IMG/VR virus record: IMGVR_UViG_3300020598_000119
From: a virus
Taxonomy: Duplodnaviria > Caudoviricetes
Reading direction: 5' to 3' (one strand)
Length of the DNA stretch: 64,000 nt
The first letter of the stretch is position 1, and each line of letters starts with the position of its first letter. Under the pieces are notes generated by a model. That model did no database searches and was not told the DNA's origin. It saw only the letters and a list, made by a program, of their open reading frames with translations. Shown in pieces: positions 18,081 through 43,236 of this stretch. The translations under genes and the position numbers were made by a program.

Positions 18081-18156
18081 TGGCGCGACCGGGGAGAGTC
18101 GAACTCCCGACCTCCTCGTTCGGAGCGAGGCGCTCTATCCACTGAGCTACGGCCGC
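18081..18156 (-). tRNA. tRNA-Arg(CCG)
   Basis: cloverleaf, CCTCG-CT CCG AA-CGAGG, CCA end. Confidence 0.92.
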
Positions 18157-18164
18157 ATTTAAGG

Positions 18165-18240
18165 TGGAGCGCACGGCAGGATTCGAACCTGCATAAATCG
18201 GCTTCGTAGACCGATGCCACATCCCTTGGACCACGTGCGC
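18165..18240 (-). tRNA. tRNA-Arg(ACG), divergent D-arm
   Basis: TCGGT-CT ACG AA-GCCGA, GTTCGAATC, CCA. Confidence 0.85.
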
Positions 18241-18281
18241 GAATTATTTATGACGTTTGTCCAGATCGTCATAAAAAGAAG

Positions 18282-18359
18282 TGGCACGTTTGACAGGATT
18301 CGAACCTGTGACCTTCGGTTTCGTAGACCGACGCTCTGATCCAGCTGAGCTACAAACGC
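18282..18359 (-). tRNA. tRNA-Arg(ACG)
   Basis: TCGGT-CT ACG AA-ACCGA, CCA. Confidence 0.92.
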
Positions 18360-18414
18360 AATCTCAATTAAAAGGCGGCTGCACCAGCGCCAAATAATCG
18401 AAACCATGAAACTG

Positions 18415-18490
18415 TGGTGCCATCAGCGAGGATCGAACTCGCGACTTTCGGCTCTTCAGACCGACGCTCTACCAACTGAGCTACAATGGC
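18415..18490 (-). tRNA. tRNA-Phe(GAA)
   Basis: TCGGT-CT GAA GA-GCCGA, CCA. Confidence 0.92.
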
Positions 18491-18522
18491 TTAGAAAGGG
18501 CTTTCGCTCTTTCGATGATTTG

Positions 18523-18551
18523 ACTATGCCAGACACAAAAACCTGAGTCAA
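18523..18551 (-). promoter_or_regulatory. sigma70-like promoter immediately upstream of tRNA-Phe
   Basis: TTGACT-N17-CATAGT. Confidence 0.5.
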
Positions 18552-18717
18552 CAACAAAAATAAAAAAAGATAATATTTTCAAACGCTTACATGGAAAATC
18601 AGCATGCAAAAAGGCTTCTCGGGAAGTTCGTTCCCAAGCTAAAAATCAAACATTTCGCTCCTAAATCGAGCCTTTTTTCGCCGTCGTCGTCGCATCGCTT
18701 TCTCCAGTTTCAAGACA

Positions 18718-18766
18718 ATAAAAAAGGCTGGGGCTTCGTACCTTCCGGTAGAAGCCCCAGCCTTTG
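18718..18766 (-). terminator. attenuator terminator of the Phe/Arg tRNA operon
   Basis: AAAGGCTGGGGCTTC..GAAGCCCCAGCCTTTTTT on the minus strand. Confidence 0.8.
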
Positions 18767-18789
18767 CTTTAACAGTGATCAGTCTTAGA

Positions 18790-18876
18790 TCATGTCATGC
18801 GCAAGCGCGTTGGAAGCCATCCGACCGGATGTCCAATAACGCTAAATCGCCGACGAATGATCAAACCAACTGACAT
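18790..18876 (-). CDS. leader peptide MSVGLIIRRRFSVIGHPVGWLPTRLRMT (Arg/Phe control codons)
   Basis: AAAGGGA RBS; CGT CGG CGA TTT; stop about 25 nt before the terminator. Confidence 0.7.
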   Translation of the reverse strand: MSVGLIIRRRFSVIGHPVGWLPTRLRMT

Positions 18877-19335
18877 GTTTTTCCCTTTTAGATAGACCAG
18901 CTTTGGCTTGTTTCATAATTCATTTTCGAATTATGTCCCCACCGCCATTGAGGGGATCCAAATTTGTCATTGATTTGCTATGAAGCACCTCAATGGCGCA
19001 TCTGCACCATGCTTTGACACATAGGGCAGATATTCTGTGCATTAAACGGACAATGCATGATCCACATTAGTATGACCTTGATAATCCACTCACTGTAGCC
19101 ACGTCTCTGCGACGAACGAACCATCTGCGGTTCTTGGTCGAGCAGCTATCAAGCATACTGTGCAAATCAGACATATCCGTTTAATACTATTCACAAATCT
19201 AGCCATATTTAAGAAAATGGCAACTTATTTCTTTTTGCCTTTATGAATTTTTAACAGGGCAATTAAGGCCATCCACGCCATGAGGCGAATTATGAAACAA
19301 GCCACTTATATACAGGTCCCGACAACAGTCAAGAA

Positions 19336-19950
19336 TTATGGTTGCAGCCCCCTACTGTCCTCCAGGGTTTCGTTTAAGCGAGTGATCGTGGAATTAAGAT
19401 ATTGGCTAATGCTCTCAGCAGCTTCCTTCAACTCCGGTTCCATTACCTTAGGTCTGTCAAGAGCAAGTGCGCGCTGGGTAACAACCACCGGCGGCGTCTG
19501 CCCGCTACAGATATATGCGGCTGCCAGATGATCCGACAGGTCTGCTCCACCAGAAGTCAATGCGAAACCGGATATCATTGTGATGTCGTCTACCTGACCT
19601 GAAATCAAAACGCAGCTCAATCCGGCCGCGTACATGGCATTCGCGGCCGCCTGAGGGTCGACTGTCGGCGTACATGGCCAGAATACAGTCATCTGCGGAT
19701 GAAACTGCTGCTTCCACTCATCATGACCAGCCGTCCCCTTGAAGGAGGCGACGGCGAAGCGATAGGCCTCCTCCTCATCCTCTGGAACCACCAAGCCATT
19801 GGCGACAAGGTGGTCGGGGGAATAGTTAGCATCATAGAGATCGTCGTCGGACGGTTCTGGATAGACAATGAGTTTGTCCAGATCGCCGATACAAGACCAA
19901 TTGAACCGCGAGGGCGTTGCCAAAATGAAATCAGTAGATAGCTTGCTCAT
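19336..19950 (-). CDS. hypothetical protein
   Basis: 204-aa ORF. Confidence 0.55.
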   Translation of the reverse strand: MSKLSTDFILATPSRFNWSCIGDLDKLIVYPEPSDDDLYDANYSPDHLVANGLVVPEDEEEAYRFAVASFKGTAGHDEWKQQFHPQMTVFWPCTPTVDPQAAANAMYAAGLSCVLISGQVDDITMISGFALTSGGADLSDHLAAAYICSGQTPPVVVTQRALALDRPKVMEPELKEAAESISQYLNSTITRLNETLEDSRGLQP

Positions 19951-20032
19951 TCAACTTATATCCAATGAGGTTATGCATCCACCTTGAAAGCAATTGACGC
20001 ATAAATCATCTGTCAAGATGGTGAAACGCCAA

Positions 20033-20281
20033 TTACTTCGAGGTGGAGTACGGCGCGTCGCGGTCGATGCTCTTCAACTCGGCTTGCTTTTGTAGGCCAG
20101 TCCTCTTCCACGACTGCCTGGTAGTCGAGGCAATTGGAGCAGGATTGGAAGCGCTCTTGCTATCGACGACCACTCCGTGAGGTGCCGCCACGAGACCAAG
20201 ATGATTTTGCTTTGGGGTCGAAAAACTGCAACCGCCGAGAACCAAAGTTGCCAACGAAACTGCGATAAAAGTCGCACGCAT
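20033..20281 (-). CDS. small lipoprotein
   Basis: lipobox LGGC after a hydrophobic signal. Confidence 0.55.
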   Translation of the reverse strand: MRATFIAVSLATLVLGGCSFSTPKQNHLGLVAAPHGVVVDSKSASNPAPIASTTRQSWKRTGLQKQAELKSIDRDAPYSTSK

Positions 20282-20565
20282 AGGTCACCTATAAAAACAC
20301 ACTTCCCAAATTCTGAAGGCAAGGAGCGTCGGCGTCAATTTCAGGGGATAACCCTAATCATCGGAATTCCCACAAAATAATTTACTAAAAAGCCTCGTTT
20401 AATGCGTTGATAAATATGGAATACCACCTTTTATCTGCGACAATTTGGGCTTGTTCTGCTTAATTATGGATTTTCTGTTTGACCTTCCTTTAATTACGAC
20501 CTAATTTCCAGCCCATCCAACAAATGGAACCCAAATGTTTTTGATAGGAATTCGGAGAATTAAGA

Positions 20566-20784
20566 ATGGATGATGCAGATCGCGCAAGTGACATCGAGTT
20601 GGCCCGCGTACAGAAGAGCCTTCTAAGCATTAAAAAGGAATTGAAATTCGAACCTGATGACATTTACTGCATCGAATGCGGTGATGAAATTCCTGAAGAA
20701 CGCCGCCATGCAATGCCGAATTGTATCCGTTGCGTAACTTGCCAGGAACTCGACGAGCGTCCGCGTCGCGTCAAGAGGTACTAA
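20566..20784 (+). CDS. TraR/DksA C4 zinc-finger protein
   Basis: 'DDADRAS', 'CIECGDEIPEERRHAMPNCIRCVTCQE'. Confidence 0.9.
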   Translation: MDDADRASDIELARVQKSLLSIKKELKFEPDDIYCIECGDEIPEERRHAMPNCIRCVTCQELDERPRRVKRY

Positions 20785-20785
20785 T

Positions 20786-21562
20786 TTGTCTGAAAATCTA
20801 CTCGCCGACATGCTCTATAAGAGCAGCATGAGAAATTTCGGGTCCGACGAGCACATGCAGATTGCTGGTCTTCTTAAGGACTCGAAGAAAAATGTCATAG
20901 ACACGCAGTCGGCGATTGAGATCAGACAACTTCTGAACAACGATCCACATGCCATCGAGCGTGGCCTCAATTTCATCCAGCGCCCCAAATCGCCTGTTTG
21001 GTACGAGTGGGGCCTTGAAACTCGATCCGGTCATGGAGGCAATGAGCATGTGAAAACTGGTTGCCTCGTAACTCCTCATGAGTTCGACGAGAACCTCATG
21101 CTGGCTGTCACTGGCTGGTCCACGGACGGTGTAGATGCTCGACATGCATTTGCTGTAGCATTGTTTGACACCGAGACGATGGCGCAGATCTCCAAAATTG
21201 CCAGATCGCGTAGGAATTCAACGGCAGATGCGAGTTTGAGCCGGATCATGAACTGCATCGAAGTTACGATGCCACCTGGCTTCAATGATGAAATCGACAT
21301 TCTGACAGGAAGCGATCCATTTGCAAAAGAGCGGAGCTATCGTGACGCTACGGCGGAAATCCCCTTCCTGCTGACGATTATGCTACTCGAACAAACCAAA
21401 GGTGGTCTGACGGGTACGCAAACGGAAAATGTCACTCGCCAGACATTATCACCCTCTCCTAAGAAGGGTTGCATGCGCGAGTTTTTTGATAATGCAAGGA
21501 AGCGCAAAAATTACTTCTCGATCCCGAATTGGAAGGGATCTTCTCCAGTTTGGTATAGATGA
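20786..21562 (+). CDS. hypothetical protein
   Basis: 258-aa ORF coupled to the traR-like gene. Confidence 0.55.
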   Translation: MSENLLADMLYKSSMRNFGSDEHMQIAGLLKDSKKNVIDTQSAIEIRQLLNNDPHAIERGLNFIQRPKSPVWYEWGLETRSGHGGNEHVKTGCLVTPHEFDENLMLAVTGWSTDGVDARHAFAVALFDTETMAQISKIARSRRNSTADASLSRIMNCIEVTMPPGFNDEIDILTGSDPFAKERSYRDATAEIPFLLTIMLLEQTKGGLTGTQTENVTRQTLSPSPKKGCMREFFDNARKRKNYFSIPNWKGSSPVWYR

Positions 21563-21564
21563 AC

Positions 21565-21586
21565 AAGCCCGCATTGAGCGGGCTTT
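21565..21586. terminator. terminator between convergent genes
   Basis: AAGCCCGC..GCGGGCTTT. Confidence 0.55.
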
Positions 21587-21589
21587 CGC

Positions 21590-23419
21590 TTATCGGAATC
21601 GATAGGCCACAGGATCAGGGGAAATCATCCCAGAAATTGGCGCGACCTCTTCGCAGTCCATCAAACCATCGAGGTTCATTTCTTGATACTTCTTGTTCAC
21701 GAACGGGAACCAGGGCATGACAGCTAGATTCAGGGTGTCGCGGTCCTTCCAGTCATAACCACAGAGCCTCTCAATACCATCATCAGGGATCGGAATATCG
21801 TCGAGGAAGGCGCTGATCAGCTTTCGGTTGAGCTTTACCTGTCCCGAGAGGATTGCCGACATGTACCAAGCGGTGGCGTCTTTTGCCTTAGGACTTGCGG
21901 CTGTATTTCCATGAGCCATGTTCTGCTTAACACGCAGCATGTCGTTTGAAGGATTTAAGGAGTCGAATTCGATTGTCGAATGGCGGCGTTCTATAGCCCC
22001 ATTTTCATCCAACGAACGAACCGACACGATGAACGATTGGCACGTTTCTGCGACACGGGTGTAACCACCGACGCAGTGGTTCATTGCTGCCCCTTCCTGT
22101 TGCAATTCAATCGTACTGCGAAGGGGAACAAGCCACAGGCCGTTGGGAGCCTGAACAGGCTCAGTCAAACCAGGCCAAGTGTTGGCCTCTATCGAGCGTC
22201 TCAGCTCTTGTCGGTTCTCGGCCTCAATCTGCGCCGTGCCACTCAAGATGTCATTGCGGCCAAGGTGGAAGCGACGCTGTTGATCTGCGATGTCGGTCAG
22301 TGATTTGCCAGCAATGATCATCTCGAATGCCGCTGCACGGGCGGCAATACCCATCTCTGGAGTTACCATGACCTCGTCACTGTCACCACCATGGGCGGAC
22401 AGGGGGAGGACTACAAAATTTTTGAAATCCTCAAGCATGTCAGCCGTGTTTCGCATCGCAAGACGGAAGTCTTCCTCAGGATCAGCCATATCTACATCAA
22501 GGCTCTCGGGGATGGTAAGGTGAATGCGGAAGTATTCTTCAAGTTTGGCCTGCTCAATACCCGCCTTCTTGATTACGCGCTGACAAAAGTCTGTCCATTT
22601 ACCTTGTGCTGATTTGACCATAGGCCCCACAGAATGATCACTAGCAGCCAGATCTTCGAATATACCTCCGGCGACCTGACAAAACGAGCGCCAGTCTTGG
22701 CCCGAGGTCGGTATCCAATCTGGCGGAACCAGCGACATCAAACGAACCACAGACGAAAGCTTCACACCGTTCGGAATGGTGTCGGCCGTCGAAAGGCGCT
22801 TGAGAACTGGCTTCGTAATTGAAGCGTCGACGATTTTTGAGAGCAAATTGACAACCGTATCAGCGATTGGCTTCTTACGGTCCACCGCCATTTTTGCAGT
22901 CAAATTCGATGATAAAAGGTCGGCTAGGATCGGATAGCTCGCCGCAGCCTGACGCCGAATAAGGGCGCGATCATTATCGCCAGCATAGAATTCGTAAGCT
23001 GCTTTAGTTTGCTGATAGCTTTTGGCAATAGCATCGAGACCTTTGTGGTCAAAGTTTTTCACGCGATTTTTTTCGCTCGAAATCAACTCAGCAAGCTCAC
23101 TTCTTGCCTCTTCACGAAATTCAAACGGCAGGTTCAATTGATCCATAAGATCATCGACACGATCACCACCAACCATTGCGAACGCCCACGGTGCATGTGC
23201 ACGACTATCTGTCGGGCTTTCCGTAAGGAGACCCATGGCGTCTTCGACGTGGAACTGTTTGAAACTTGTCGCCGAAGAATATGTCAAAGTGCCCTCATCA
23301 TTCCCAACGATTATGCAAACAGACAATTTGACATCGTCACGATAGGAAAGGGCATACCCGTCCCCCGTAGGTGAGGAAATAGAGGTTAATTTAACCCCGA
23401 GTTTTTCCAAAATACTCAT
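21590..23419 (-). CDS. PcfJ-domain protein
   Basis: 'ELQQEGAAMNHCVGGY...IVSVR...STIE'. Confidence 0.75.
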   Translation of the reverse strand: MSILEKLGVKLTSISSPTGDGYALSYRDDVKLSVCIIVGNDEGTLTYSSATSFKQFHVEDAMGLLTESPTDSRAHAPWAFAMVGGDRVDDLMDQLNLPFEFREEARSELAELISSEKNRVKNFDHKGLDAIAKSYQQTKAAYEFYAGDNDRALIRRQAAASYPILADLLSSNLTAKMAVDRKKPIADTVVNLLSKIVDASITKPVLKRLSTADTIPNGVKLSSVVRLMSLVPPDWIPTSGQDWRSFCQVAGGIFEDLAASDHSVGPMVKSAQGKWTDFCQRVIKKAGIEQAKLEEYFRIHLTIPESLDVDMADPEEDFRLAMRNTADMLEDFKNFVVLPLSAHGGDSDEVMVTPEMGIAARAAAFEMIIAGKSLTDIADQQRRFHLGRNDILSGTAQIEAENRQELRRSIEANTWPGLTEPVQAPNGLWLVPLRSTIELQQEGAAMNHCVGGYTRVAETCQSFIVSVRSLDENGAIERRHSTIEFDSLNPSNDMLRVKQNMAHGNTAASPKAKDATAWYMSAILSGQVKLNRKLISAFLDDIPIPDDGIERLCGYDWKDRDTLNLAVMPWFPFVNKKYQEMNLDGLMDCEEVAPISGMISPDPVAYRFR

Positions 23420-26400
23420 GCACACATCTCCAGGGCTTTAGCCTGATGTTCGTTTTCATCAACAAAGTCACGGCGGTATTTGCTGTCGACGTAGAACGTG
23501 TTAATCCCAGAATTATTCAAAATTTCCAACACATCACGCAAATCATCAACGCTGGTAATCGTTACAGATGAATGAGTGTTGCTGGTCAATTCTCCGCTTT
23601 CAAACAGCTCTTTAAATGCTTCAGATGGCCATTTACGCCCTGCACGGCTATTGCGCGGAGCTGGGATGGTAAGATTCCACGTATCACGTCCAAATGGAGA
23701 GATTTTCAACGCATTCTTTGAAGAAGTGGCCGAATTGGTGACCTCGGCACGTTTATCAACAAGCGCATTGAGAGCCTGTTCAACACCGTCAAGGCGAACC
23801 GCCAATTTTTCGAGATGGGATTCAAAGTTCTTTTTTACCAAAACACCGCGATGGCGATTACCTTCCGAGTCCACGTAGGAAATCATCTGACCGAGATTGT
23901 ACTTGGTCGCCAAACGGACGGCACGGAAAATGTTGGTCGAGAGAATACGAGCAGGCGTCAGTTTCTTTGCTGATGCGCCTTCGAACCTCTCCAGCACCTT
24001 GTCATAATCCGAACCCGTCAGGCCGTCAGATACATTGAATTTAACGCCGCCGTTCTTTTCGAAAGTAGCGACCTGCATATCCTGCAAAAGCGTGCTCAAA
24101 CGAACAGACGTGATGCGTGTCTGACCTGGAATGGCAAGCGAAACTGTGTACTGGCTGCGGAGGTGATGATAGCCAGACGGCGGCGCATATACAGCAGTTA
24201 CGATAGCCTTGACCTTTTCCGCATCGAGGCCATGAGCAAGCTCAACCTCACGACCTGGGATCAGCGCACGCAATGCAGCCGCCGTAATTTCCATATCGCT
24301 CTTGATCTGCATAAGCTTCGGGTTGTTTTTCTCCAGTGCCTCCTGAACAGTTCTAATGTTCTTTGGCATGTAGATTTCGAGATAGACTTCTGGGCTTTCT
24401 GTAATGTTGTCAGCAGCCTTCTCGACTTCACCGTAAACCTCGGTACCAGCCTCAACAGCTTCCATCAGCGCTTCTGAACGAATGGATTCTGCAACTCGTT
24501 CGATAACGACATCACGGATGTGCATCGGGCCATCGAAAGCCGTAACTGCAGCAGAGTTCTCATTGCCCTCAAAGAGACGTGCATCACGAATGTGAACCAT
24601 GCCTTCGAGTTCCTTCGGACGAAGCGGGTTTTCGCCGCGAGCCTCAAGTTCTGCGATATGCAGCTCGTATTCGGCTGTTAGCTCAGACAGAACCTTTTCC
24701 TGATAATCAGTTGGCAACAACGCGAGGCGAGACATGAACTCGTTCGCCGAACGGTCATTGTCCTGACGGCTTTCACTTTCGACATCTTCGTCAGTACCAG
24801 GAACATTCACAACGCCTTCCTCGTCGACATATGAGAGACATAGCTTCTTTACGAGATCTGGTCGCATTTCCGCATATTTGGAGACAACCTGATCGCCGAC
24901 CGAATTGATCAAGTCTGGAATGTTCTTCGTCAGGAAGATGCTGTCACGATTTGATGTCACGTTTGCCGAGAGACGGCGCAGTTTCTGGTTTCTCATAGCT
25001 GCAAGACGCACTTCAACAGGAAGTCCGCTGGAGAGGACTTCAACACGAGATGGGACAACCTCATCGTAACGGCTGACACGACCATAAGCCTGAATCTGCT
25101 TCAGGACATATGCAGGCCCTTGTAGCTCGATCATCACGCGACGGCGCTGATCCTTGAAACGGCGCGAGGCGTGCAGGTCGATGCCCGTGCTACCAGCTGA
25201 GTTGATGACGAGAGCGTCGACTTCGCCAGCGTTGAAGGAGTTTTTGGTTTTGGTGACGTTGCGCTCCTTGCGCGGGACAACCTTGCCGTCGACCACTTCA
25301 AGCACTCGTCCCGTGATCTCCCCACAGGAGAACCCAGCATCACGAATTTTACCCTTAACGACGTCAATTGCCGATGCTGGCAAATCAGGAAGCTGATCGA
25401 TCATAGCGTTGATGTGGGAAAGCGTAGCCTGCACGGCCTCATTGCCTTCTGCAGCATCAACACGGTTCAGACCCCCATCGTCATCAGTGTACGACATCTT
25501 GGTTAGCTGGCCGAGGATGCGTCTCATGACGTCCTTGAAGTCAGGAGCGTCACCGCCATCAAGCTCTGCATCCTTGAGAATGCCTTGAATAGTGTTTTCG
25601 ACGAGGACGATAGGCTTTTCGCCATTCTGCAGGGCGGTTACGGCCCGTTCAGCGGCAAATTCAGCAAGAAGCGCGGCCGAGAAGAGCCGTATCATCGTGT
25701 AAAGCGGAGAGCCGAAGCCCATGCGCTTAAGCTGAATACCCTTCAAAAGGCTGCCATCAGTATTGTTTCGAGCATTGACAACACGGTCCATCTCACCGGA
25801 CAGGACAGCCATCTCTCCTATGACAGCGGCCAAAGCGTCCATGTGATTGCGATTTCTCTCAACGCGTTCGCTATCGAGATGCTGGCTGATCTCCAGCTTG
25901 GACATGTCCTTCTCACGACGGATCATGACGCCATCGGTCACCAGCATAGAAGAGACAACTTCCATGAACTGCTCACCGCCTTTGCGCATCATCGCAGCAA
26001 TTTCAGAGCCGCTCATTCCGTACGGGAACAGCCGTTCAAAGAATGCCATCGCCCGAGCGTCTCCAGCGAATGTGGCTGACGAAAGAACTGGAGGGCCGGA
26101 TGCCTCAATTGCATGCGCAATGTTTTCGGAAGTGTTCGAGTTACCGCTTGCCGCAACGTGAATTTCATCGCCCACCACAAGCGTCTCGGCATCAATGACT
26201 TCGCGTAGCCACGCAGCACGTGCCGAATCTTCTGGCGACTGATTGAACTGGCTGTAGGTAGCAAAGACGACAGGGATGTCGTCCGGCCAGGTCTTATCAG
26301 CGATTGCCTTTTCAAGAATGGAGCGATCCCCGAGTTCAAACGCCTTACCAGTAGATTCATCGATCAGCGAAGCGTCCTGGTTCATGACCACTGGCTTGAC

Positions 26401-29671: not shown

Positions 29672-29704
29672 GGCTTAACTGGTATTAAGGAGTGAATTTT
29701 CGCA

Positions 29705-33522: not shown

Positions 33523-33530
33523 CGGAGATC

Positions 33531-34214
33531 ATGGTGAGGAAGATTATTCTTGCCGTACTCGTCAGTCTAGCCTCTCTCAGCGAGACTGCACTTGCAGAAA
33601 GCTCTGGCGCAGAAAACAGCGTCAGGGCCTCCTGTACCGTTAACGGAAGAATCGTCTATCGAGAAGACCTGCCTGCTACCGCATCTTTTGAGCAGCGCAA
33701 AAAAATCATGGATGCGTTTCCGTATGCCATGTGTATTTTCTTGGCAAATAGCGGCCCTCAAAACACTCAATCAACCGTCAGCGACTATGGATTTGATAGG
33801 GATGCTGGCTCAGATGATGGCCTGGTAGCTGCTTTGGCTGCCATTTCTGGAGGACAGACTGGCGAACGTTATCCAGACGACATAGCTCGCATGTTCCCAG
33901 GCGAGAAGGATGCAATGGACATTCTCGGCAACGGAACAACAGAATCTGAATCAAATGGGCCGAACCCAGCGAAGCAGAGCGATGGCTTTGTAAATCTGAC
34001 GCTAGGCATCTATAAAAACATGAAAATGGGCGACATTCTTGCTCATTGGAAGGTCATGCAAAAATATGGCCCCACTCTTAGAAAAATGACGCCCACATTC
34101 GATACAGTCGACGACATAACCGTCATGTCGATCATGCAGGTACCCGACGCATTGGCAGATAAAGTTTGCACGGAGGCGTCGGAAAAAGGACAGGGGTGCA
34201 TCGCCTTCTTTTAG
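33531..34214 (+). CDS. secreted hypothetical protein
   Basis: signal peptide. Confidence 0.55.
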   Translation: MVRKIILAVLVSLASLSETALAESSGAENSVRASCTVNGRIVYREDLPATASFEQRKKIMDAFPYAMCIFLANSGPQNTQSTVSDYGFDRDAGSDDGLVAALAAISGGQTGERYPDDIARMFPGEKDAMDILGNGTTESESNGPNPAKQSDGFVNLTLGIYKNMKMGDILAHWKVMQKYGPTLRKMTPTFDTVDDITVMSIMQVPDALADKVCTEASEKGQGCIAFF

Positions 34215-34240
34215 CGGGTGCCAAACCGACCTAAAGAAAC

Positions 34241-35083: not shown

Positions 35084-35140
35084 TTAACCTCCAAATATTG
35101 CGCCGATAGCGCAATTCAATAACAATCTAACAAAACTAGG

Positions 35141-36040: not shown

Positions 36041-36113
36041 TCGCTGCATGGCGATAATTCATTGACATTTTTCTGGTGGAATTTTAGTAATTTCCCATTC
36101 GAAGGGAAAAACG

Positions 36114-37400: not shown

Positions 37401-37417
37401 GCTGCGCAATCAAACTC

Positions 37418-37458
37418 AACAAAAAAGCCGCCGAGTTACCTCAGGCGGCTTTTTTGTT
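37418..37458. terminator. bidirectional terminator
   Basis: AACAAAAAAGCCGCC..GGCGGCTTTTTTGTT. Confidence 0.8.
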
Positions 37459-37470
37459 CCTGTTGTGACA

Positions 37471-37758
37471 TCACATTCGAGGGCCAAGTGTCACGTCCTC
37501 CTCAACCTCGGTAGCAGTGTCTACGCGACTTCTGGCATCCCAGAATGGCTTAAATGCAAAAGGAAGATCAATCCATCTTTGGCCATCGCGCTCACTTGTG
37601 AATGATTCCTTGTTAGTGATGCCGCCTTCGGATTCAAAATCCCGAATAATCTGTTTAGCTATTTCTGTCTCTCGAACGTACAGATCACTCTGATGGCTAT
37701 CGGTTTCGCAACCTGCCTCGACTAGACGTTCATAGAGAGATTTGCGGTCTTCTGTCAT
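37471..37758 (-). CDS. hypothetical protein
   Basis: AAGGA RBS, MTEDRKS...; 'HQSDLYV'. Confidence 0.6.
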   Translation of the reverse strand: MTEDRKSLYERLVEAGCETDSHQSDLYVRETEIAKQIIRDFESEGGITNKESFTSERDGQRWIDLPFAFKPFWDARSRVDTATEVEEDVTLGPRM

Positions 37759-37896
37759 GGATCGTTCCTTGCTCGTGCTTTGAGCCGATAATGAGATCAA
37801 AGCCAGCAAACAACAAAGAAGGCACAAAAATGAGGAAAAAGGGTGACATGATGACCAAAGTACTCATGAAATCGTGAGCAAGAACAGATATCTATA

Positions 37897-37990
37897 TGGT
37901 GCGGACGGCAGGACTTGAACCTGCACGGAGAGTAGCAAGCTCTCCACTGGGACCTGAACCCAGCGTGTCTACCAATTCCACCACGGCCGC
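37897..37990 (-). tRNA. tRNA-Leu(CAG)
   Basis: CTGGG-TT CAG GT-CCCAG, long variable arm, CCA. Confidence 0.9.
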
Positions 37991-38008
37991 ATATTCTTTG
38001 ATTTGACT

Positions 38009-38092
38009 TGGTGTGGACGGCGGGGATCGAACCCGCACGCACGAAGCGGTGAATTTTAAGTTCACTGCGTCTACCTATTCCGCCACGTCCAC
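38009..38092 (-). tRNA. tRNA-Leu(TAA)
   Basis: GTGAA-CT TAA AA-TTCAC, CCA. Confidence 0.92.
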
Positions 38093-38158
38093 ATTTTTTA
38101 TTCGGCGGTAAGTAAGAAGAAGATTGATTGGTTGGTGGTGTCTTCTGCAGGCAGTCAG

Positions 38159-38242
38159 TGGTGCGGCTGAGAAGAGTCGAACTTCCACGGGTTGCCCCAC
38201 AGCGACCTCAACGCTGCGTGTCTACCATTCCACCACAGCCGC
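38159..38242 (-). tRNA. tRNA-Leu(GAG)
   Basis: CAGCG-TT GAG GT-CGCTG, CCA. Confidence 0.92.
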
Positions 38243-38280
38243 ACAGTTCCGCTGATCAACGACGGCGAAGTCACAAGTAT

Positions 38281-38355
38281 TGGAACCGAAGGATGGAGTC
38301 GAACCATCGTCTCTGGAGCCACAATCCAGCGCTCTAACCATTGAGCTACAACGGC
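38281..38355 (-). tRNA. tRNA-His(GTG), mismatched acceptor stem
   Basis: CTGGA-TT GTG GC-TCCAG, CCA. Confidence 0.85.
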
Positions 38356-38365
38356 AAACAGGCAT

Positions 38366-38510
38366 CGCTAAGTAAAGGGACTCGAACCCTTAACGCAGAA
38401 TCGGTCTGGTTCGTATCTGCCATTGGTTTCTGCCATGAACCAGGGGTATGAATACCCATTCGTGATTGGCTTGACCTCAACGTCGTCTACCACTTCCGAC
38501 ATACTCAGCG
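38366..38510 (-). other. tRNA-Leu-like element with about 60-nt internal insertion, no CCA
   Basis: GCTGAGTA/TACTTAGC acceptor, Leu-type D-loop GGTAGAC, CGTTGAGGTC, T-arm AAGGGTTCGAGTCCCTT. Confidence 0.55.
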
Positions 38511-38542
38511 AATTTCGATAAGGACCCGAGGCCCTTGAAACT

Positions 38543-38645
38543 TGGTGGCAGAACAGGCACTTGATCTCAGCGGATGATCAATCCGTGATCTTTGACCAGT
38601 ACGCCGACTCCGACGAATGTACCTAGGATACGTCAGGGTCCTGCC
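38543..38645 (-). ncRNA. tRNA-like RNA (acceptor stem plus ACCA, non-canonical body)
   Basis: GGCAGGAC/GTTCTGCC-ACCA. Confidence 0.4.
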
Positions 38646-38652
38646 ATTTAAG

Positions 38653-38729
38653 TGGTCGGAGTGGCAGGCTTCGAACCTGCGACCTATGGTTCCCAAAACC
38701 ATCGCGCTACCAGGCTGCGCTACACTCCG
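38653..38729 (-). tRNA. tRNA-Pro(TGG)
   Basis: ATGGT-TT TGG GA-ACCAT, CCA. Confidence 0.92.
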
Positions 38730-38794
38730 AATTCTTCATGCACGGGCCGAGCAGCGCCACTGAAGGCAGTAGGTCTCGGCCCGTTAGTTTAACT

Positions 38795-38886
38795 TGGTGG
38801 GGGACGGCTAGAGTTGAACTGCTTGCCGCATAGGGACCCGGTTTACAGCCCGGTGACAGGACCGCCCATCCTTATTGGCGTCCCCC
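38795..38886 (-). tRNA. atypical tRNA with GTA (Tyr) anticodon, 8-bp acceptor stem
   Basis: GGGGGACG/CGTCCCCC-ACCA, D-stem AGGAT/GTCCT, loop CT GTA AA. Confidence 0.6.
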
Positions 38887-38891
38887 ATAAA

Positions 38892-39105
38892 TGGTGGAGA
38901 TGACAGGATTTGAACCTGCGCAGACCGTGATGACCTTCGCATTACCAAAGGCTCCCAATTGGTTTGAAACGCGCTTCCCTACTCGGCCCTCTCTGGCTGT
39001 TTCGGTGCATCCGCAAAGACCCCAATCGAGATTTGTCACGTCCCTGTTTTACCAGAGCCGGATTCCGTTTCCCGGTGCCCATGCCGACCTCAGGCGGACA
39101 TCCCC
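38892..39105 (-). ncRNA. 214-nt tmRNA-like RNA (tRNA-like domain with G3-U70)
   Basis: GGGGATG/CATCTCC-ACCA, T-arm GCAGGTTCAAATCCTGT. Confidence 0.55.
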
Positions 39106-39107
39106 AT

Positions 39108-39185
39108 TGGCTTGAACGGCAAGGATTTGAACCTGCGACCTCCTGGACCCATTCCAGGCGCGCTCCCAGACTGCGCTACATTCAA
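39108..39185 (-). tRNA. degenerate tRNA-Pro-like (TGG, A at position 33)
   Basis: Pro-type D-arm TAGCGCAGTCTGG, CCTGG-AA TGG GT-CCAGG, CCA. Confidence 0.55.
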
Positions 39186-39406
39186 GACAAACTAGATTTG
39201 ACCAAAACATGGTCAGAAACTTTTGGCACTCACAGCGACGCCAAGGATCATCAGTCGCTGTCTCTCCACGGGAGAGGGATCTTCAGGCTCGTCCACGATC
39301 CGCCGCCTGTTCCTAAAAGTGCCACCGAAACAGCAGCTGGCCAGCCGCCATTCCGCAGGCTTCCTGGGATTGTTCTAGAATTTGCCCAGTATAGCCTTTG
39401 AAGCTG

Positions 39407-39489
39407 TGGTGCGGATGAGAGGAATCGAACCTCCACGGTTGCCCGTCAGAACCTAAATCTGATGCGTCTACCAATTTCGCCACATCCGC
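39407..39489 (-). tRNA. tRNA-Leu(TAG)
   Basis: TCAGA-TT TAG GT-TCTGA, CCA. Confidence 0.92.
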
Positions 39490-39519
39490 ATATTTCCCAA
39501 AGGGGAAAAGGAAAAATGA

Positions 39520-39596
39520 TGGTCGGAGCAGCAGGACTCGAACCTGCGACCCCCTGATCCCAAATCAGGTGCGCTACCAGACTGCGCTATGCTCCG
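39520..39596 (-). tRNA. tRNA-Pro(TGG)
   Basis: CCTGA-TT TGG GA-TCAGG, CCA. Confidence 0.93.
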
Positions 39597-39683
39597 TTTT
39601 ATTCAAAAATCATATTTCCATTTCCTCTTCAAGGGGGTCAAATCGAATTTAAAAACTCCATCATCTGACCCCCTTACATAATT

Positions 39684-39766
39684 TGGTACGGCAGAGAGGA
39701 CTCGAACCTCCACGTCAGAGACAATGGATTTTGAATCCACCGCGTCTACCATTCCGCCACTGCCGC
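39684..39766 (-). tRNA. tRNA-Leu(CAA)
   Basis: GTGGA-TT CAA AA-TCCAT, CCA. Confidence 0.92.
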
Positions 39767-39771
39767 AAACA

Positions 39772-39855
39772 TGGTGTAGGGAGTTGGATTCGAACCAACG
39801 TGGATTGCTCAACGGATTTACAGTCCGCCCCTTTCGGCCTCTCGGGCACCCCTAC
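39772..39855 (-). tRNA. tRNA-Tyr(GTA)
   Basis: GCGGA-CT GTA AA-TCCGT, CCA. Confidence 0.93.
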
Positions 39856-39990
39856 AATTCCTCGCAAACCAGCTACCAAGAGAATAACGCGGTGACGGCC
39901 ACGGTATTCAAAGCCAGATTGCTCTGTTCTTGCTCACAATTTCAAAGATCATTCTGCGGGAGCAGAACCCCCTTTCGGGGAAAAACACGC

Positions 39991-40040
39991 AAAAAAAAAG
40001 AAGAACCCTCGTTAGCGGTCGGCCAGCGAGGGTTCTTCTT
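39991..40040 (-). terminator. attenuator terminator of the Leu/Pro/His/Tyr tRNA operon
   Basis: AAGAAGAACCCTCG..CGAGGGTTCTTC followed by T9. Confidence 0.85.
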
Positions 40041-40067
40041 GGTCTGATCGAAGGATTTACTTAAGCG

Positions 40068-40229
40068 TTAAAATCCTTCTTTCGCCAATACAGCCCGCTG
40101 ACCGCAACCCAGATACGGGAGCGGTAACAAATGGGGGGGATGAGGCAGAGCGGAAACGGCACGCGTCAGGGCGACGCGAGCAGAAACTGCCGCAACCTTT
40201 CCCTGTACTGTCTGTGCCGAAGCGTTCAT
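40068..40229 (-). CDS. leader peptide MNASAQTVQGKVAAVSARVALTRAVSALPHPPHLLPLPYLGCGQRAVLAKEGF
   Basis: GAGGA RBS; 13 consecutive Leu/Pro/His/Tyr codons at 40148-40110. Confidence 0.8.
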   Translation of the reverse strand: MNASAQTVQGKVAAVSARVALTRAVSALPHPPHLLPLPYLGCGQRAVLAKEGF

Positions 40230-40274
40230 CGTTCTATCCTCAAAGTTGGCGACTGGAATTCGTCGTGTTGCCTA

Positions 40275-40303
40275 TAGATGAATGACGTCGGCGAAACTGT
40301 CAA
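40275..40303 (-). promoter_or_regulatory. sigma70-like promoter of the leader/tRNA operon
   Basis: TTGACA-N17-CATCTA. Confidence 0.55.
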
Positions 40304-40465
40304 TATGATTTTTGCAATTTCTGATTTTTTATTCCGAGGACGTCCGATGCCGATGAATCATCTCTGAGGCGGATGGCCATTGGATGGCAAAAAGGGGCTG
40401 CAAGAAAATTGTTGGTTTCCAGCAACCGCAGGCACTATCATGAAACAAAATATTGGAGTTTTTCG

Positions 40466-41404
40466 ATGGCAATAGATTTACCTACCGCAGCCATGGCGCT
40501 TATCACCGCACTGGAGAGCGTCACTGGTGTTCAGATTGCTATTCTCGAACGTCGTGATGACCCGGCTGAATTCTGGGCCAGAACCGCAGCAATTCTATGT
40601 GATAAAACAAAACAGAATTGGTGCAGTGAGGACGTTCGCTTCATGACGTCCAATACGGAACTGATGGGGATGTCTCATATAATCGAGTACAACTTCGATG
40701 GGAAGGGGACACGTAGGGTATGCGCACTCCTGCCGCCCATTGCGAACATCGATCCCAATTTCATCGCCAATGCATATGGTTCACCGTATCCGACTATCTA
40801 CGATTTGCCATCGAGTGCGGAAACGGCAAGTTGGCTGATGCTGTATCATGCGGCGCACTGCCTCGACACAGCTCTGTCCGACCAGGAAGAAAACCGAGCT
40901 GTCGCCTTTGCGACTCTAGGGCTTTCGTTGATGGGAGGAGACTACAAGTTTCTGCCAGGAAGGGTACGCTCATCTGCTCGCCAGATTGCGGCCATGACAG
41001 GTAAGGCATCTGGATATTGGGCCGCAGGCACTGGCGAACGCATTCTGATGGATCTCTGGAAGACTGAAACTGGGGACAGGCTCCGGCGCGAGTACGGATG
41101 CTATCCAATAGTGAAACAGAGCAGCTCGATTGATATCGAACGGATTGCACGCGATTCACGCATTCCAGAAGGACAAAACTGCGCTGCAGAAGCAGGTGGG
41201 AACGGTGGTGGCATGCGTACGAACCCGCAGGGCACAATCACGGACGCCAACCTGTGGCTTTGGCTATATGGGCCTCAAAGTGGAGGAACGTCATCACCAA
41301 GGCTTGGCGTGCCCCCGAAGGACTACTATCCGTTTAAGACCTTCAAGGACTTCAGCACCGCCGCCTCTTACGTATTAGAGACAGCCAACAAGCTAGCGCA
41401 GTGA
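40466..41404 (+). CDS. hypothetical protein
   Basis: start taken at MAIDLP; 'YHAAHC' is an HExxH-like motif lacking Glu. Confidence 0.55.
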   Translation: MAIDLPTAAMALITALESVTGVQIAILERRDDPAEFWARTAAILCDKTKQNWCSEDVRFMTSNTELMGMSHIIEYNFDGKGTRRVCALLPPIANIDPNFIANAYGSPYPTIYDLPSSAETASWLMLYHAAHCLDTALSDQEENRAVAFATLGLSLMGGDYKFLPGRVRSSARQIAAMTGKASGYWAAGTGERILMDLWKTETGDRLRREYGCYPIVKQSSSIDIERIARDSRIPEGQNCAAEAGGNGGGMRTNPQGTITDANLWLWLYGPQSGGTSSPRLGVPPKDYYPFKTFKDFSTAASYVLETANKLAQ

Positions 41405-41710
41405 CGGTGTCGCTGACGGACGGAGTTCGTTGGCACGTCTGACGAGATCGTCGTGCCATGCCTTGGCTTCTGCGTCTGTGTAGGGCCTATAACAGCCAGA
41501 CCCCCAATCGGAATGAACGTAGTTATAGTCTGCGTCGACCTCCAGCGCATCTGCAGCCGCCGACAGGAGTGCAGTGTCAGGGCCAGTGAAGCGATCCTCA
41601 GGGGCGTCGAATTCGGGGTCGTAGTTCGGCGATAAGTTTGCATGCTTCTCAACGAACGCCCTGATTTCGGCGGCCAATGATCGACGTTCATCTGTCATTT
41701 CAAGCTCCAT
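41393..41710 (-). CDS. hypothetical protein
   Basis: 105-aa ORF. Confidence 0.5.
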   Translation of the reverse strand: MELEMTDERRSLAAEIRAFVEKHANLSPNYDPEFDAPEDRFTGPDTALLSAAADALEVDADYNYVHSDWGSGCYRPYTDAEAKAWHDDLVRRANELRPSATPSLR

Positions 41711-41794
41711 AGTTCCGACTAATGATCAAAACTTACCCTTGAACGCTACAAACGAGCGAAAAAGAGAAAAAATTAAAAAATGCAAAAATGGCCA

Positions 41795-41823
41795 TTGACA
41801 CATTCCGCCGTCTAATTCATATC
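41795..41823 (+). promoter_or_regulatory. sigma70-like promoter of the Ser/Gln leader
   Basis: TTGACA-N17-CATATC. Confidence 0.55.
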
Positions 41824-41847
41824 TAGGGAAGATCAAGGAGTTTAGAA

Positions 41848-41940
41848 ATGTTCGTTCAGTCGTCCCAACAGCAATCCAGCCAGTCGAGTTCATCAAGCTC
41901 GAACGCGGTGCTGTGCGCGGTGACTGATCCGAAAATCTGA
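41848..41940 (+). CDS. leader peptide MFVQSSQQQSSQSSSSSSNAVLCAVTDPKI
   Basis: AAGGAG RBS; 15 consecutive Ser/Gln codons. Confidence 0.85.
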   Translation: MFVQSSQQQSSQSSSSSSNAVLCAVTDPKI

Positions 41941-41965
41941 CCTCAATATCAGATCAAAAGGTTTC

Positions 41966-41992
41966 AGAACCCGCCCAAAAGGCGGGTTTTTT
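41966..41992 (+). terminator. attenuator terminator of the Ser/Gln tRNA operon
   Basis: AACCCGCC-caaaa-GGCGGGTTTTTT, 6 nt before the first tRNA. Confidence 0.85.
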
Positions 41993-41998
41993 GTATGC

Positions 41999-42090
41999 GG
42001 AAACATGGCTGAGAGGCTTAAAGCAGCGGTTTGCTAAACCGTCAGGGAGGTAAAATACCCTCGGGAGTTCGAATCTCCCTGTTTCCGCCA
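41999..42090 (+). tRNA. tRNA-Ser(GCT)
   Basis: GCGGT-TT GCT AA-ACCGT, long variable arm, GCCA. Confidence 0.92.
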
Positions 42091-42131
42091 CGAATTCGAA
42101 TTTTCTGTCCGCAGGGAATTCAAACAAATAC

Positions 42132-42219
42132 GGAGCTGTGACCGAGTGGCTTAAGGTGGCAGTCTTGAAAACTGATGCGGCTAACCCCGCCGTAGGTTCG
42201 AATCCTACCAGCTCCGCCA
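42132..42219 (+). tRNA. tRNA-Ser(TGA)
   Basis: CAGT-CT TGA AA-ACTG, GCCA. Confidence 0.9.
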
Positions 42220-42253
42220 CAATTTTGGCTTATTTATTTATGGGAGAAGGGCC

Positions 42254-42457
42254 ATGACAGTACACGAAATAAATGCTCCGGTTGATGCCGTAGACGCAGC
42301 TGTCATGGCCCTTGTGGAAGCCCATGTTGATAAGGCTCAACAGGCCAGAGAACGATCCAATCTGAGGGGATGGTTCGTTGGCCAGACGATGAAGCAGCTT
42401 AATGGAACTGCAGAGCGTCAAACAGTCGAAATCGCAGTGAATAAGGCACTGCAATAA
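42254..42457 (+). CDS. stand-alone GatB/YqeY C-terminal (tRNA-binding) domain-like protein
   Basis: 'LRGWFVGQTMKQLNGTA' resembles the GatB tail 'GFFVGQVMK..KGKA'. Confidence 0.6.
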   Translation: MTVHEINAPVDAVDAAVMALVEAHVDKAQQARERSNLRGWFVGQTMKQLNGTAERQTVEIAVNKALQ

Positions 42458-42492
42458 TAGGAGTTTCGGCCTAATAAATGGGCCAAAGAATT

Positions 42493-42582
42493 GGAAAGAT
42501 GGCAGAGTCCGGTTGATTGCACTCGCCTCGAAAGCGAGCAAGCCGCAAGGCTTCGGGAGTTCAAATCTCCCTCTTTCCGCCA
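42493..42582 (+). tRNA. tRNA-Ser(CGA)
   Basis: CTCGC-CT CGA AA-GCGAG, GCCA. Confidence 0.92.
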
Positions 42583-42588
42583 GCACGT

Positions 42589-42662
42589 TGGGGATTAGTT
42601 TAATGGTAGAACGGCGGACTCTGAATCCGTTGGTCCTGGTTCGAGTCCAGGATGCCCAGCCA
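42589..42662 (+). tRNA. tRNA-Gln(CTG)
   Basis: U1-A72, GCGGA-CT CTG AA-TCCGT. Confidence 0.9.
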
Positions 42663-42679
42663 AGAATTACGAAATAAAT

Positions 42680-42754
42680 TGGGGCGTCGCCAAGCGGTAA
42701 GGCATCGGTTTTTGGTACCGACATGCGGAGGTTCGAATCCTCCCGCCCCAGCCA
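42680..42754 (+). tRNA. tRNA-Gln(TTG)
   Basis: U1-A72, TCGGT-TT TTG GT-ACCGA. Confidence 0.92.
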
Positions 42755-42778
42755 TTTTCGTAGTTAATTCGTTAAATT

Positions 42779-42866
42779 GGAGCCGTGGCAGAGTGGTTGA
42801 ATGCACTCGCTTGGAAAGCGGGCAGACCGCAAGGTCTCGGGAGTTCGAACCTCCCCGGCTCCGCCA
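42779..42866 (+). tRNA. tRNA-Ser(GGA)
   Basis: CTCGC-TT GGA AA-GCGGG, GCCA. Confidence 0.92.
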
Positions 42867-42888
42867 ATTATTAAATAAGGAAAAATCC

Positions 42889-43125
42889 ATGAGCAATGAG
42901 TCGATTAACATCAAAGAACACGTCACTGCAGGACCGTGCACACTCGTTTGCGCGCGAGCAGGCAATCTCTGGTATCGAACTGCTCTTGGATTTGAATTCC
43001 CAGTGCCTTTCTCGGATATGGGTGACGCGACTTTCTCGTCCGAGGAGAAAGGCATGATGCTCATGCGCTACATCCGAAAGCACAATGAAACGATCACTGC
43101 TGCGCGACAACAACAAGTCGCGTAG
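42889..43125 (+). CDS. small phage-like hypothetical protein inside the tRNA operon
   Basis: AAGGA RBS; 'LWYRT..GFEFPVP.SD.GDATF...EK....MRYIRK'. Confidence 0.65.
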   Translation: MSNESINIKEHVTAGPCTLVCARAGNLWYRTALGFEFPVPFSDMGDATFSSEEKGMMLMRYIRKHNETITAARQQQVA

Positions 43126-43161
43126 GCAGTCGTCTTTCTCTCATTAGACGACTTTTGATGA

Positions 43162-43236
43162 TGCCGAGTCGTCTAATGGTAGGATCTGAGCCTTTGAAGC
43201 TACAGGACGTGGGTTCGACCCCCACCTCGGCATCCA
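43162..43236 (+). tRNA. tRNA-Gln(TTG), atypical bulged anticodon stem
   Basis: TGCCGAG/CTCGGCA-TCCA, AGC-CT TTG AA-GCT. Confidence 0.7.

Follow-up and report, generated by a model that had tools for sequence, protein, structure and literature searches.

Putative Leader-Peptide Attenuators Carrying the Codons of the tRNA Clusters They Precede on a Plasmid-Like Element

Introduction

The enterobacterial leaders ilvL (ilvGMEDA operon; Leu/Val/Ile), thrL (Thr/Ile), hisL, trpL, leuL and pheL are short translated sequences with a run of control codons, which in the multivalent cases stand for several amino acids. Their 1:2, 2:3 and 3:4 hairpins end in an intrinsic terminator, which is read through when the ribosome stalls. 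Here we describe putative leaders that would be alike in all these respects and are located in front of tRNA genes, in a stretch of DNA of 64,000 nucleotides (nt) that is filed in IMG/VR as a virus (Duplodnaviria; Caudoviricetes; record IMGVR_UViG_3300020598_000119) and is called the window below. Comparison with related elements makes it likely that each tRNA cluster of the window is a tRNA operon under a ribosome-mediated (leader-peptide) transcription attenuator, which would provide codon-resolved feedback on tRNA supply.

Such control is already known for one part of the translation machinery: the pheM leader of pheST in Escherichia coli resembles the leaders of the element in this respect and senses the availability of Phe-tRNA. 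Bacterial tRNA genes themselves are subject to growth-rate and stringent control, which act at the promoter. Near-complete accessory tRNA sets occur on mobile DNA, as in the ICEAfe1 array of Acidithiobacillus and in the arrays of mycobacterial plasmids and phages. These arrays have been described as constitutive or have been left unexplained, and we know of none in which the genes are grouped by amino acid behind codon-matched attenuators. Leader-peptide attenuation is used in rhizobia, according to passages of two reports on trpL of Sinorhizobium meliloti (PMC6614838, PMC7298713).

Results

Codon Runs Upstream of the tRNA Clusters

In total, 21 tRNA genes forming three clusters were revealed in the window, with agreement between ARAGORN and Rfam. 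Cluster 1 (18081–18490, minus strand) is a Phe/Arg array consisting of Phe(gaa), two copies of Arg(acg) and Arg(ccg). Cluster 2 (37897–39855, minus strand) is a Tyr/Leu/Pro/His array of 10 genes, and cluster 3 (41999–43236, plus strand) is a Ser/Gln array of seven genes, Ser(gct, tga, cga, gga) and Gln(ctg, ttg, ttg).

A first-pass annotation of this DNA had placed a ribosome-binding site, a short open reading frame (ORF) and an intrinsic terminator upstream of each cluster on its own strand. All of these components were confirmed. The Shine–Dalgarno (SD) motifs AAGGAG, GAGGA and AGGGA lie 6–8 nt before the ATG in the three leaders, and the terminators are GC-rich hairpins followed by T-runs (–15, –27 and –35 kcal/mol) that are conserved in relatives. 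A consensus promoter/terminator scanner overlooked evident long-stem terminators, and terminators were called by folding instead.

All six frames of the window were scored for runs of codons read by each of the three tRNA sets. The Ser/Gln run of 15 codons (next best 5) and the Tyr/Leu/Pro/His run of 13 codons (next best 7) were unique maxima, and both were found less than 300 nt upstream of their own cluster on the correct strand. For each of clusters 2 and 3, the probability of such a maximum lying by chance in the 400 nt upstream on the correct strand is approximately 0.003. Phe/Arg runs of at least four codons occur 36 times in the window, which corresponds to approximately 0.11 expected per such upstream region (0.02 for runs of at least five). 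With its runs of 4–5 codons, cluster 1 is therefore unconvincing alone. The earlier claim that the codon runs match the downstream tRNAs therefore stands for clusters 2 and 3 and is weak for cluster 1 taken alone.

None of the curated Rfam leader families (His_leader, Leu_leader, Thr_leader, Trp_leader, Phe_leader and others) reached its gathering threshold in the window, where only tRNA matches had gathering scores. At permissive thresholds we obtained His_leader with 28 bits (49 needed; wrong strand) and Leu_leader with 21 bits (50 needed), both driven by the terminators. The T-box covariance model had no match in the window.

Conservation of the Leaders in Related Elements

A protein of 343 amino acids is encoded between clusters 2 and 3, and 88 homologues of it were found in Rhizobium, Agrobacterium, Sinorhizobium, Neorhizobium and metagenomes. 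Ten contigs with these homologues were examined; the Ser/Gln array was present in nine of them and the Tyr/Leu/Pro/His array in six. The neighboring protein was 44–83% identical in the diverged elements whose leaders were compared.

We looked for homologous arrays lacking codon-matched leaders and found the leaders kept in every case, that is, in 12 of 12 Ser/Gln arrays and in nine of nine Tyr/Leu/Pro/His arrays. The Ser/Gln leader is approximately 30 codons long, has the form MF..S.QQQ.SQSSSSSS and is followed by the same terminator; its SD motif and ATG are conserved. The Tyr/Leu/Pro/His leader contains ...LPL.LLPLPY, followed by G-Q-R and the terminator.

It should be noted that one metagenomic relative has a Ser-sized tRNA with the anticodon UUA ("tRNA-Stop"; L034:7049–7135) at the tRNA-Ser(cga) position of its Ser/Gln array, which is possibly an ochre suppressor. 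In the Tyr/Leu/Pro/His array of the same relative tRNA-Tyr has been lost and the Tyr codons are still present in the leader.

The backbone of the element was also found in more distant replicons with a different content. The megaplasmid of Methylorubrum extorquens AM1 (L040, 495953–520831) and a plasmid of Bosea sp. ANAM02 (L041), both with the 343-amino-acid protein and the latter also with PcfJ and the Strawberry-notch helicase, contained no tRNA genes within 12 kb, and one metagenomic contig with a homologue of the 343-amino-acid protein had no tRNA arrays nearby. Given these array-less backbone relatives, the tRNA regulon belongs to a single branch of the large replicons in this family. 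The Ser/Gln leader pattern was detected in only one of 401 genomes sampled from the order (Mesorhizobium sp. SP-1A, see below), and thus the element is rare among species representatives. Searches of phage and plasmid DNA with the arrays gave matches at the level of tRNA similarity only, with the exception of plasmid pRlX5 (see below); Sinorhizobium phage Phosso contains scattered single tRNAs without the layout of leader and cluster.

Alternative Structures in the Leaders of Clusters 2 and 3

The leader of cluster 2 (40068–40241, minus strand), as read from the sequence, consists of the SD motif GAGGA (40241–40237) and a 53-codon ORF (40229–40068). It is preceded by a putative promoter P1 (40275–40303, minus strand) with the –35 hexamer TTGACA (40303–40298), a 17-nt spacer and the –10-like CATCTA; TTGACA was found upstream of the leader in eight of eight relatives checked. 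The control run LPHPPHLLPLPYL (40148–40110), which would serve as segment 1, has 13 consecutive codons covering all eight anticodon species of the array. The terminator (39991–40040, minus strand), called by folding, is strong and is located approximately 135 nt before tRNA-Tyr.

Alignment of the relatives delimits an antiterminator box (segment 2, CGGTCAGCGGG; 40094–40104, minus strand) that encodes the conserved G-Q-R. The codons of this tripeptide form the box (C)GGTCAGCGGG, whose complement is found in the 5′ arm and the loop of the terminator (segment 3, 40030–40020). In the alignment of nine sequences the resulting helix of 11 bp is 94.9% paired, as compared with 23–50% when it is slid by 1–3 columns, and three of its pairs show compensatory changes, e.g., GGTCGACGGG:CCCGTCGACC in one relative. 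Folding gives the antiterminator (–39 kcal/mol, z = –3.7) a higher stability than the terminator (–27 kcal/mol). In all nine sequences the box can alternatively pair with the Leu/Pro control codons (predicted 1:2 structure, –16 to –20 kcal/mol). The leader of cluster 2 is, as far as predicted folds and alignment tell, a classical 1:2/2:3/3:4 arrangement in which the control codons are segment 1.

In cluster 3 (leader at 41835–41940, plus strand, likewise read from the sequence) the SD motif AAGGAG (41835–41840) is followed by a 30-codon ORF (41848–41940). Codons 4–18 of this ORF (41857–41901) are 15 consecutive Ser/Gln codons, which include a cognate codon for each of the six anticodon species of the array. 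The putative promoter P1 (41795–41823, plus strand) is composed of the –35 hexamer TTGACA (41795–41800), a 17-nt spacer and the –10-like CATATC, with an A-rich tract before it; TTGAC(A/T) and an A-rich upstream tract were revealed approximately 50 nt before the leader ATG in 12 of 12 Ser/Gln relatives. The terminator found by folding (41969–41993, plus strand; AACCCGCC / GGCGGGTT and a T-run) is nearly invariant in these relatives. It ends 5 nt before tRNA-Ser in the window and 5–25 nt before the first tRNA in all 12 relatives.

The antiterminator predicted for cluster 3 (41912–41978, plus strand) joins a GCGCGG box, located in the 3′ portion of the ORF, to the 5′ arm of the terminator (ACCCGCC), and the stop codon (41938–41940) sits in the apical hairpin. 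The same pairing (GCGCGG/GCGGG box with ACCCGCC), with a stem-loop enclosing the stop codon, is predicted in 12 of 12 relatives, with –19 to –34 kcal/mol vs. approximately –15 for the terminator and z scores of –1.0 to –3.8 against shuffled sequences. The inner part of the stem-loop varies in sequence among the relatives while its structure stays.

The control codons of cluster 3 themselves contain a 7-bp hairpin (41884–41902) that is conserved in the 12 sequences and shows CG to UA covariation. A Ser-to-Asn change in the leader peptide is matched there by a synonymous change on the opposite strand of the hairpin. This hairpin may be a pause or 1:2-type element. In the full-length fold, the start of the control run pairs with the region of the box, less clearly than in the 1:2 pairing of cluster 2.

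The first-pass annotation had proposed for all three clusters a pairing around the stop codon between the 3′ portion of the ORF and the 5′ arm of the terminator. This was borne out in clusters 2 and 3, and the covariation that it had suggested looking for was found in the box:arm helix of the former (the three compensatory pairs) and in the control-codon hairpin of the latter. The case of cluster 1 is given below.

Seven Pairs of Leaders and tRNA Clusters in Two Large Replicons

An element 94–97% identical to the window was found in contig 2 of Mesorhizobium sp. SP-1A, which was the only strain returned by a contig search of genomes with the 343-amino-acid neighbor protein. Besides the three clusters of the window it contains four others, seven in total. 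Plasmid pRlX5 of Rhizobium leguminosarum TP16 (1.32 Mb) is syntenic with the window, its proteins being 30–70% identical, and shares all seven clusters, in which the amino acids are grouped alike and each of which has a matching leader before it. Approximately 44 of the 92 tRNA matches in SP-1A belong to the element, which means that it carries a second, near-complete tRNA set.

The Trp/Thr(cgt)/Thr(tgt)/Cys/Arg(tct) cluster of SP-1A is preceded by a promoter, an SD motif and a 24-codon ORF with the codons ACG AGA ACG ACA TGG ACA TGT TGG AGA, which are exactly those of the cluster anticodons; a terminator is located 15 nt before tRNA-Trp. Upstream of the Asn/Val/Gly/Ala/Met/Ile/Thr(ggt) cluster of 13 genes we found an ORF with a run of 21 codons, 20 of them cognate, and then a terminator. 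The leaders of the Glu/Asp and Lys clusters are weaker (EE..EDD and K-R-K, respectively). In the Lys cluster of pRlX5 there is an additional tRNA-Arg(cct), and an AGG codon without counterpart in SP-1A is present in the leader; this is a single observation.

Two amino acids are split between clusters by codon. For Arg, CGN codons stand before the Arg(acg/ccg) cluster and AGA before the Arg(tct) cluster; for Thr, ACG and ACA stand before Thr(cgt/tgt) and ACC (four of four codons) before Thr(ggt).

The concordance of codons and anticodons upstream of the arrays of relatives, which the first-pass annotation had put forward as a check, holds across the seven clusters, weakly so for the Lys cluster of relatives. 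In a cross-matrix of leaders against tRNA sets, the true assignment was reached or beaten by two of 5040 permutations in SP-1A and by one of 5040 in pRlX5. At 20 chromosomal tRNA loci of SP-1A the codon-match score was 0–3, and nothing similar to the leaders of the element was found there.

Besides the tRNA clusters, pRlX5 encodes a two-piece (permuted) transfer-messenger RNA (L027:30314–30815), located approximately 12 kb from the Lys tRNA cluster. Hence the part of the translation apparatus found on this accessory replicon goes beyond tRNAs.

Cluster 1 and the Sites Downstream of the Attenuators

Phe/Arg leader A of cluster 1 (18790–18876, minus strand), read from the sequence, is a 28-codon ORF with CGT CGG CGA TTT at 18855–18844, two further CGC codons close to the stop and an SD-like AGGGA upstream. 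Its counterpart in pRlX5 has a similar length and reads RRFR...RF..RRR. The terminator called by folding (18719–18765, minus strand) has a stem of approximately 15 bp and a T-run. An alternative pairing of leader and terminator is plausible in the window (z = –2.5), and this part of the proposal made for cluster 1 did not extend to pRlX5 (see Discussion). The comparison of cluster 1 comprises three sequences, two of them near-identical; a metagenome search with the neighboring protein of 204 amino acids gave no further examples of this cluster.

Two features of cluster 1 were absent from the first-pass annotation, namely ORF-B (18695–18639) and the promoter-like site P2 (18551–18523). ORF-B (18639–18695, minus strand; MRRRRRKKARF...) is a second Arg-rich short ORF after the terminator; it carries (CGA)n / GACGACGACGG, and its start is kept in pRlX5. 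We considered it as a second Arg sensor but do not treat it as support: GACGACGACGG turns up again at the same position in front of other clusters, where it is in another frame (DDDG), and ORF-B has no terminator after it.

A short second ORF after the attenuator terminator was found in several clusters (MRRRRR..., MDDDGNG... and MP(E/D)GDDD...), in each case with GACGACGACGG/(CGA)n and in differing frames. Besides the window, such ORFs are located at L017:3593–3650, L016:15031–15108, L025:6243–6130 (minus strand) and L028:6323 and 24889 (minus strand). Their starts are kept between the window-type element and pRlX5. It could be that GACGACGACGG/(CGA)n acts as a site in DNA or RNA and is not a coding feature.

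P2 (18523–18551, minus strand) is located between the attenuator and tRNA-Phe and is composed of TTGACT, 17 nt and TG-CATAGT with a T/A-rich upstream tract. It probably adds attenuator-independent basal transcription to cluster 1. A repeated module of this kind (TTGAAA..., a T/A-rich tract, TTTTTGTTGTTGAC and a –10 approximately 17 nt later) lies between the attenuator and the tRNA genes in four of the seven clusters; it was found at 18523–18600 (minus strand) in the window and at L015:~14000–14060, L016:~15145–15210 and L017:~3710–3770. Its position suggests a dual-promoter design.

In several clusters the first tRNA is also preceded by a conserved TTTGACAT(C/T)G box, 50–60 nt after the attenuator terminator or after P2. 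The box or its counterpart is located at 39940–39945 (minus strand) in the window, after the cluster 2 terminator in L025, L031, L033, L035 and L036, and at L017:~3830 and L028:~6100. In the window the counterpart after the cluster 2 terminator is TTGAAA with a poor –10. The box may be the –35 region of a weak promoter, or a processing or binding site.

The Element and Its Neighboring Genes

The G+C content of the window is approximately 50% throughout. In SP-1A the element (contig 2, 900–1100 kb) has 50–52% G+C over at least 200 kb, as compared with 56–65% at the chromosomal loci of the same assembly; in related elements the values range from 49 to 63%. Among the genes around the tRNA clusters are those for a TraG/TrwB-type coupling protein, PcfJ, a Strawberry-notch-type helicase, a ClpB-like ATPase and an AbiE toxin–antitoxin pair. 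These surrounding genes point to a conjugative, plasmid-like element. The location on a mobile element that the first-pass annotation had assumed was right in spirit, the relatives being plasmid-like replicons of approximately 1.2–1.3 Mb with conjugation-type genes.

The AbiEi/AbiEii-type toxin–antitoxin (abortive-infection) pair (15347–17023, minus strand) is located directly downstream of the Phe/Arg cluster, and its homologues were found at the same place in pRlX5. Within the Ser/Gln array, an ORF of 67 amino acids (42254–42457, plus strand) matches the C-terminal GatB/YqeY domain (Pfam PF02637, 30.6 bits, cut-off 27), which is associated with tRNA-dependent amidotransferases. This mini-protein is kept only in the closest relative (L030), and the other relatives have unrelated small ORFs in that spacer. 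In cluster 2, tRNA-Pro(tgg) (39108–39185, minus strand) has only 31.8 bits with the Rfam tRNA model, and its SP-1A counterpart is tRNA-Ser(gga) according to ARAGORN; it is probably a decaying gene copy.

Discussion

The leaders described above would work as follows. Transcription would start at the promoter upstream of the short ORF, which would be translated, and whose central control codons are those read by the tRNAs encoded downstream. When these codons are decoded fast, the ribosome would clear the control region, and segment 1 would re-pair with segment 2, or segment 2 would be masked by the ribosome. With segment 2 occupied, the terminator hairpin (3:4) would form and transcription would stop before the first tRNA gene. 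When a cognate aminoacyl-tRNA is scarce, the ribosome would stall on the control codons, segment 2 would be free to form the antiterminator (2:3), and RNA polymerase would enter the tRNA genes. Since the operon encodes the very tRNAs that read its control codons, the circuit would be a negative feedback on tRNA supply, acting on the second tRNA set of the element per amino acid and partly per codon. Candidate causes of a limiting tRNA are tRNA-targeting toxins or defense nucleases, an ill-suited tRNA pool of the host, or simple homeostasis.

Classical attenuation with feedback on tRNA supply per amino acid had been inferred from the window alone in the first-pass annotation. It survived the comparative tests, that is, the four further clusters, the leaders kept in 12 of 12 and nine of nine arrays, the covariation in cluster 2 and the 20 loci of the host chromosome. 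Support for the attenuation reading is strong in clusters 2 and 3 and weaker in cluster 1, where it is qualified by the extra promoter-like site.

A number of observations weigh against this reading: (i) the Phe/Arg runs of cluster 1 are only four and five codons long and are not significant alone, and its antiterminator has no support in pRlX5 (z = +0.5); (ii) P2 separates the terminator of cluster 1 from its tRNAs, and the same downstream promoter-like element is found before the Lys, Glu/Asp and Asn/Val... clusters of relatives, pRlX5 included; (iii) the Lys leader holds only two Lys codons, and the Glu/Asp leader has a score of only 3–5; (iv) the stop codon of cluster 2 is located approximately 30 nt past segment 2; and (v) amino-acid starvation also stalls ribosomes, and extra tRNA would be useless then. 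As regards (ii), where a promoter-like site lies downstream of an attenuator, the attenuator would govern only the transcription that arrives from upstream and would not be the sole gate; the Ser/Gln and Trp/Thr/Cys/Arg clusters are the only ones in which the attenuator appears to be the single gate. As regards (iv), termination under fast translation of the cluster 2 leader would have to use 1:2 re-pairing and not masking by the ribosome.

The last of these points leads to the rival explanation that survives best, although we regard it as unlikely: the attenuators are real but sense amino-acid charging, so that transcription of the tRNA genes would be tied to amino-acid supply or to the stringent state. 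The anatomy of the leaders is identical to that of known attenuators, and the known leader-peptide attenuators (trp, his, leu, thr, ilv) all respond to the charging level; moreover, an uncharged and a missing tRNA are indistinguishable by the mechanism alone. However, more tRNA does not relieve starvation, and the feedback loop would not close. The division of Arg into CGN vs. AGA and of Thr into ACR vs. ACC would also be pointless for an amino-acid sensor, whereas it is expected for a tRNA sensor. This split at the level of codons argues for sensing of tRNA species and not of amino acids.

Somewhat less probable still is that the leaders are mainly sources of trans-acting small RNAs or peptides (like rnTrpL/peTrpL), or ends of upstream transcription units, and that the tRNAs are transcribed chiefly from promoters past the terminators. 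The promoter-like sites with an A/T-rich tract that separate the tRNAs from the terminator, both in cluster 1 and in three clusters found in relatives, would suit such a role, as would the conserved TTTGACAT box after the cluster 2 terminator in diverged relatives. Yet the short distance between the cluster 3 terminator and the first tRNA in 12 of 12 relatives leaves no room for a promoter, the Trp/Thr/Cys/Arg cluster is likewise without room for a second one, and the codon matching across seven clusters would be left unexplained. A coincidence of chance short ORFs with ordinary terminators upstream of tRNA genes is very improbable and, as regards clusters 2 and 3, is already contradicted by the comparative data: cluster 1, with four cognate codons in a row, is within the chance level of the window, but the runs of clusters 2 and 3 are its unique maxima, only one or two of 5040 permutations do as well as the true assignment, the leaders are kept in all 12 and all nine arrays with compensatory changes, and the tRNA loci of the host have nothing similar.

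Under the attenuation reading, the purpose of the second tRNA set can also be considered. Compensation for codon usage was rejected as the sole purpose: the element has approximately 50% GC vs. approximately 63% in the host, but the GC content of pRlX5 is equal to that of its host, so that such compensation is not a general answer. It can be tentatively hypothesized, as a possibility well short of the attenuation reading in strength, that the seven attenuators together constitute a codon-resolved "decoding monitor", i.e., a silent spare translation kit that would switch on the tRNA group whose decoding fails. According to this hypothesis, practically every elongator anticodon in a complete second set of tRNAs has its cognate codon in the leaders. 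Possible triggers are tRNA-cleaving toxins, defense nucleases, and a move to a host whose tRNA pool is unfit for the codon usage of the element.

No description of leader-peptide attenuation of tRNA genes, of feedback on their transcription from the decoding speed of their own codons, or of these rhizobial tRNA sets was found in the full-text literature searched, in which few subscription journals are covered. The element would thus represent a known attenuation mechanism applied to a new class of targets. If this is confirmed, tRNA operons will join the targets of leader-peptide attenuation, and the leaders will represent a natural sensor that reports tRNA sufficiency separately for each isoacceptor group. 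The sorting of accessory tRNA sets into fixed amino-acid groups would be explained as well. It would also give a testable account of what large plasmids gain from full tRNA sets: homeostasis, insurance against tRNA-targeting toxins, or independence of the host pool. Finally, the leaders are ready parts for reporters of codon-specific translation stress.

Comparison with known systems places the leaders of the element close to several of them and apart from each. With T-box riboswitches they would share the logic by which genes related to translation respond to a particular tRNA, the state of which is sensed via the anticodon; however, the T-box RNA, typical of Firmicutes, binds uncharged tRNA directly, without a ribosome or a leader peptide. 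The trpL leader of S. meliloti (rnTrpL/peTrpL) belongs to the same host group and has the same architecture; in the passages of PMC6614838 and PMC7298713 considered here it controls trpE(G), and the released RNA and peptide act in trans. The target of the pheM leader is a synthetase protein, and this chromosomal leader is specific for one amino acid, whereas the leaders described here stand before tRNA genes. To the Rfam leader families there is no similarity in sequence or model, the scores being well below threshold. The enterobacterial attenuators control biosynthetic enzymes, whereas the leaders of the element precede tRNA genes, so that the sensed molecule would be the direct product of the operon. 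They also differ from the enterobacterial leaders in that the match extends down to the isoacceptor and codon, with up to approximately 20 control codons for up to seven amino acids.

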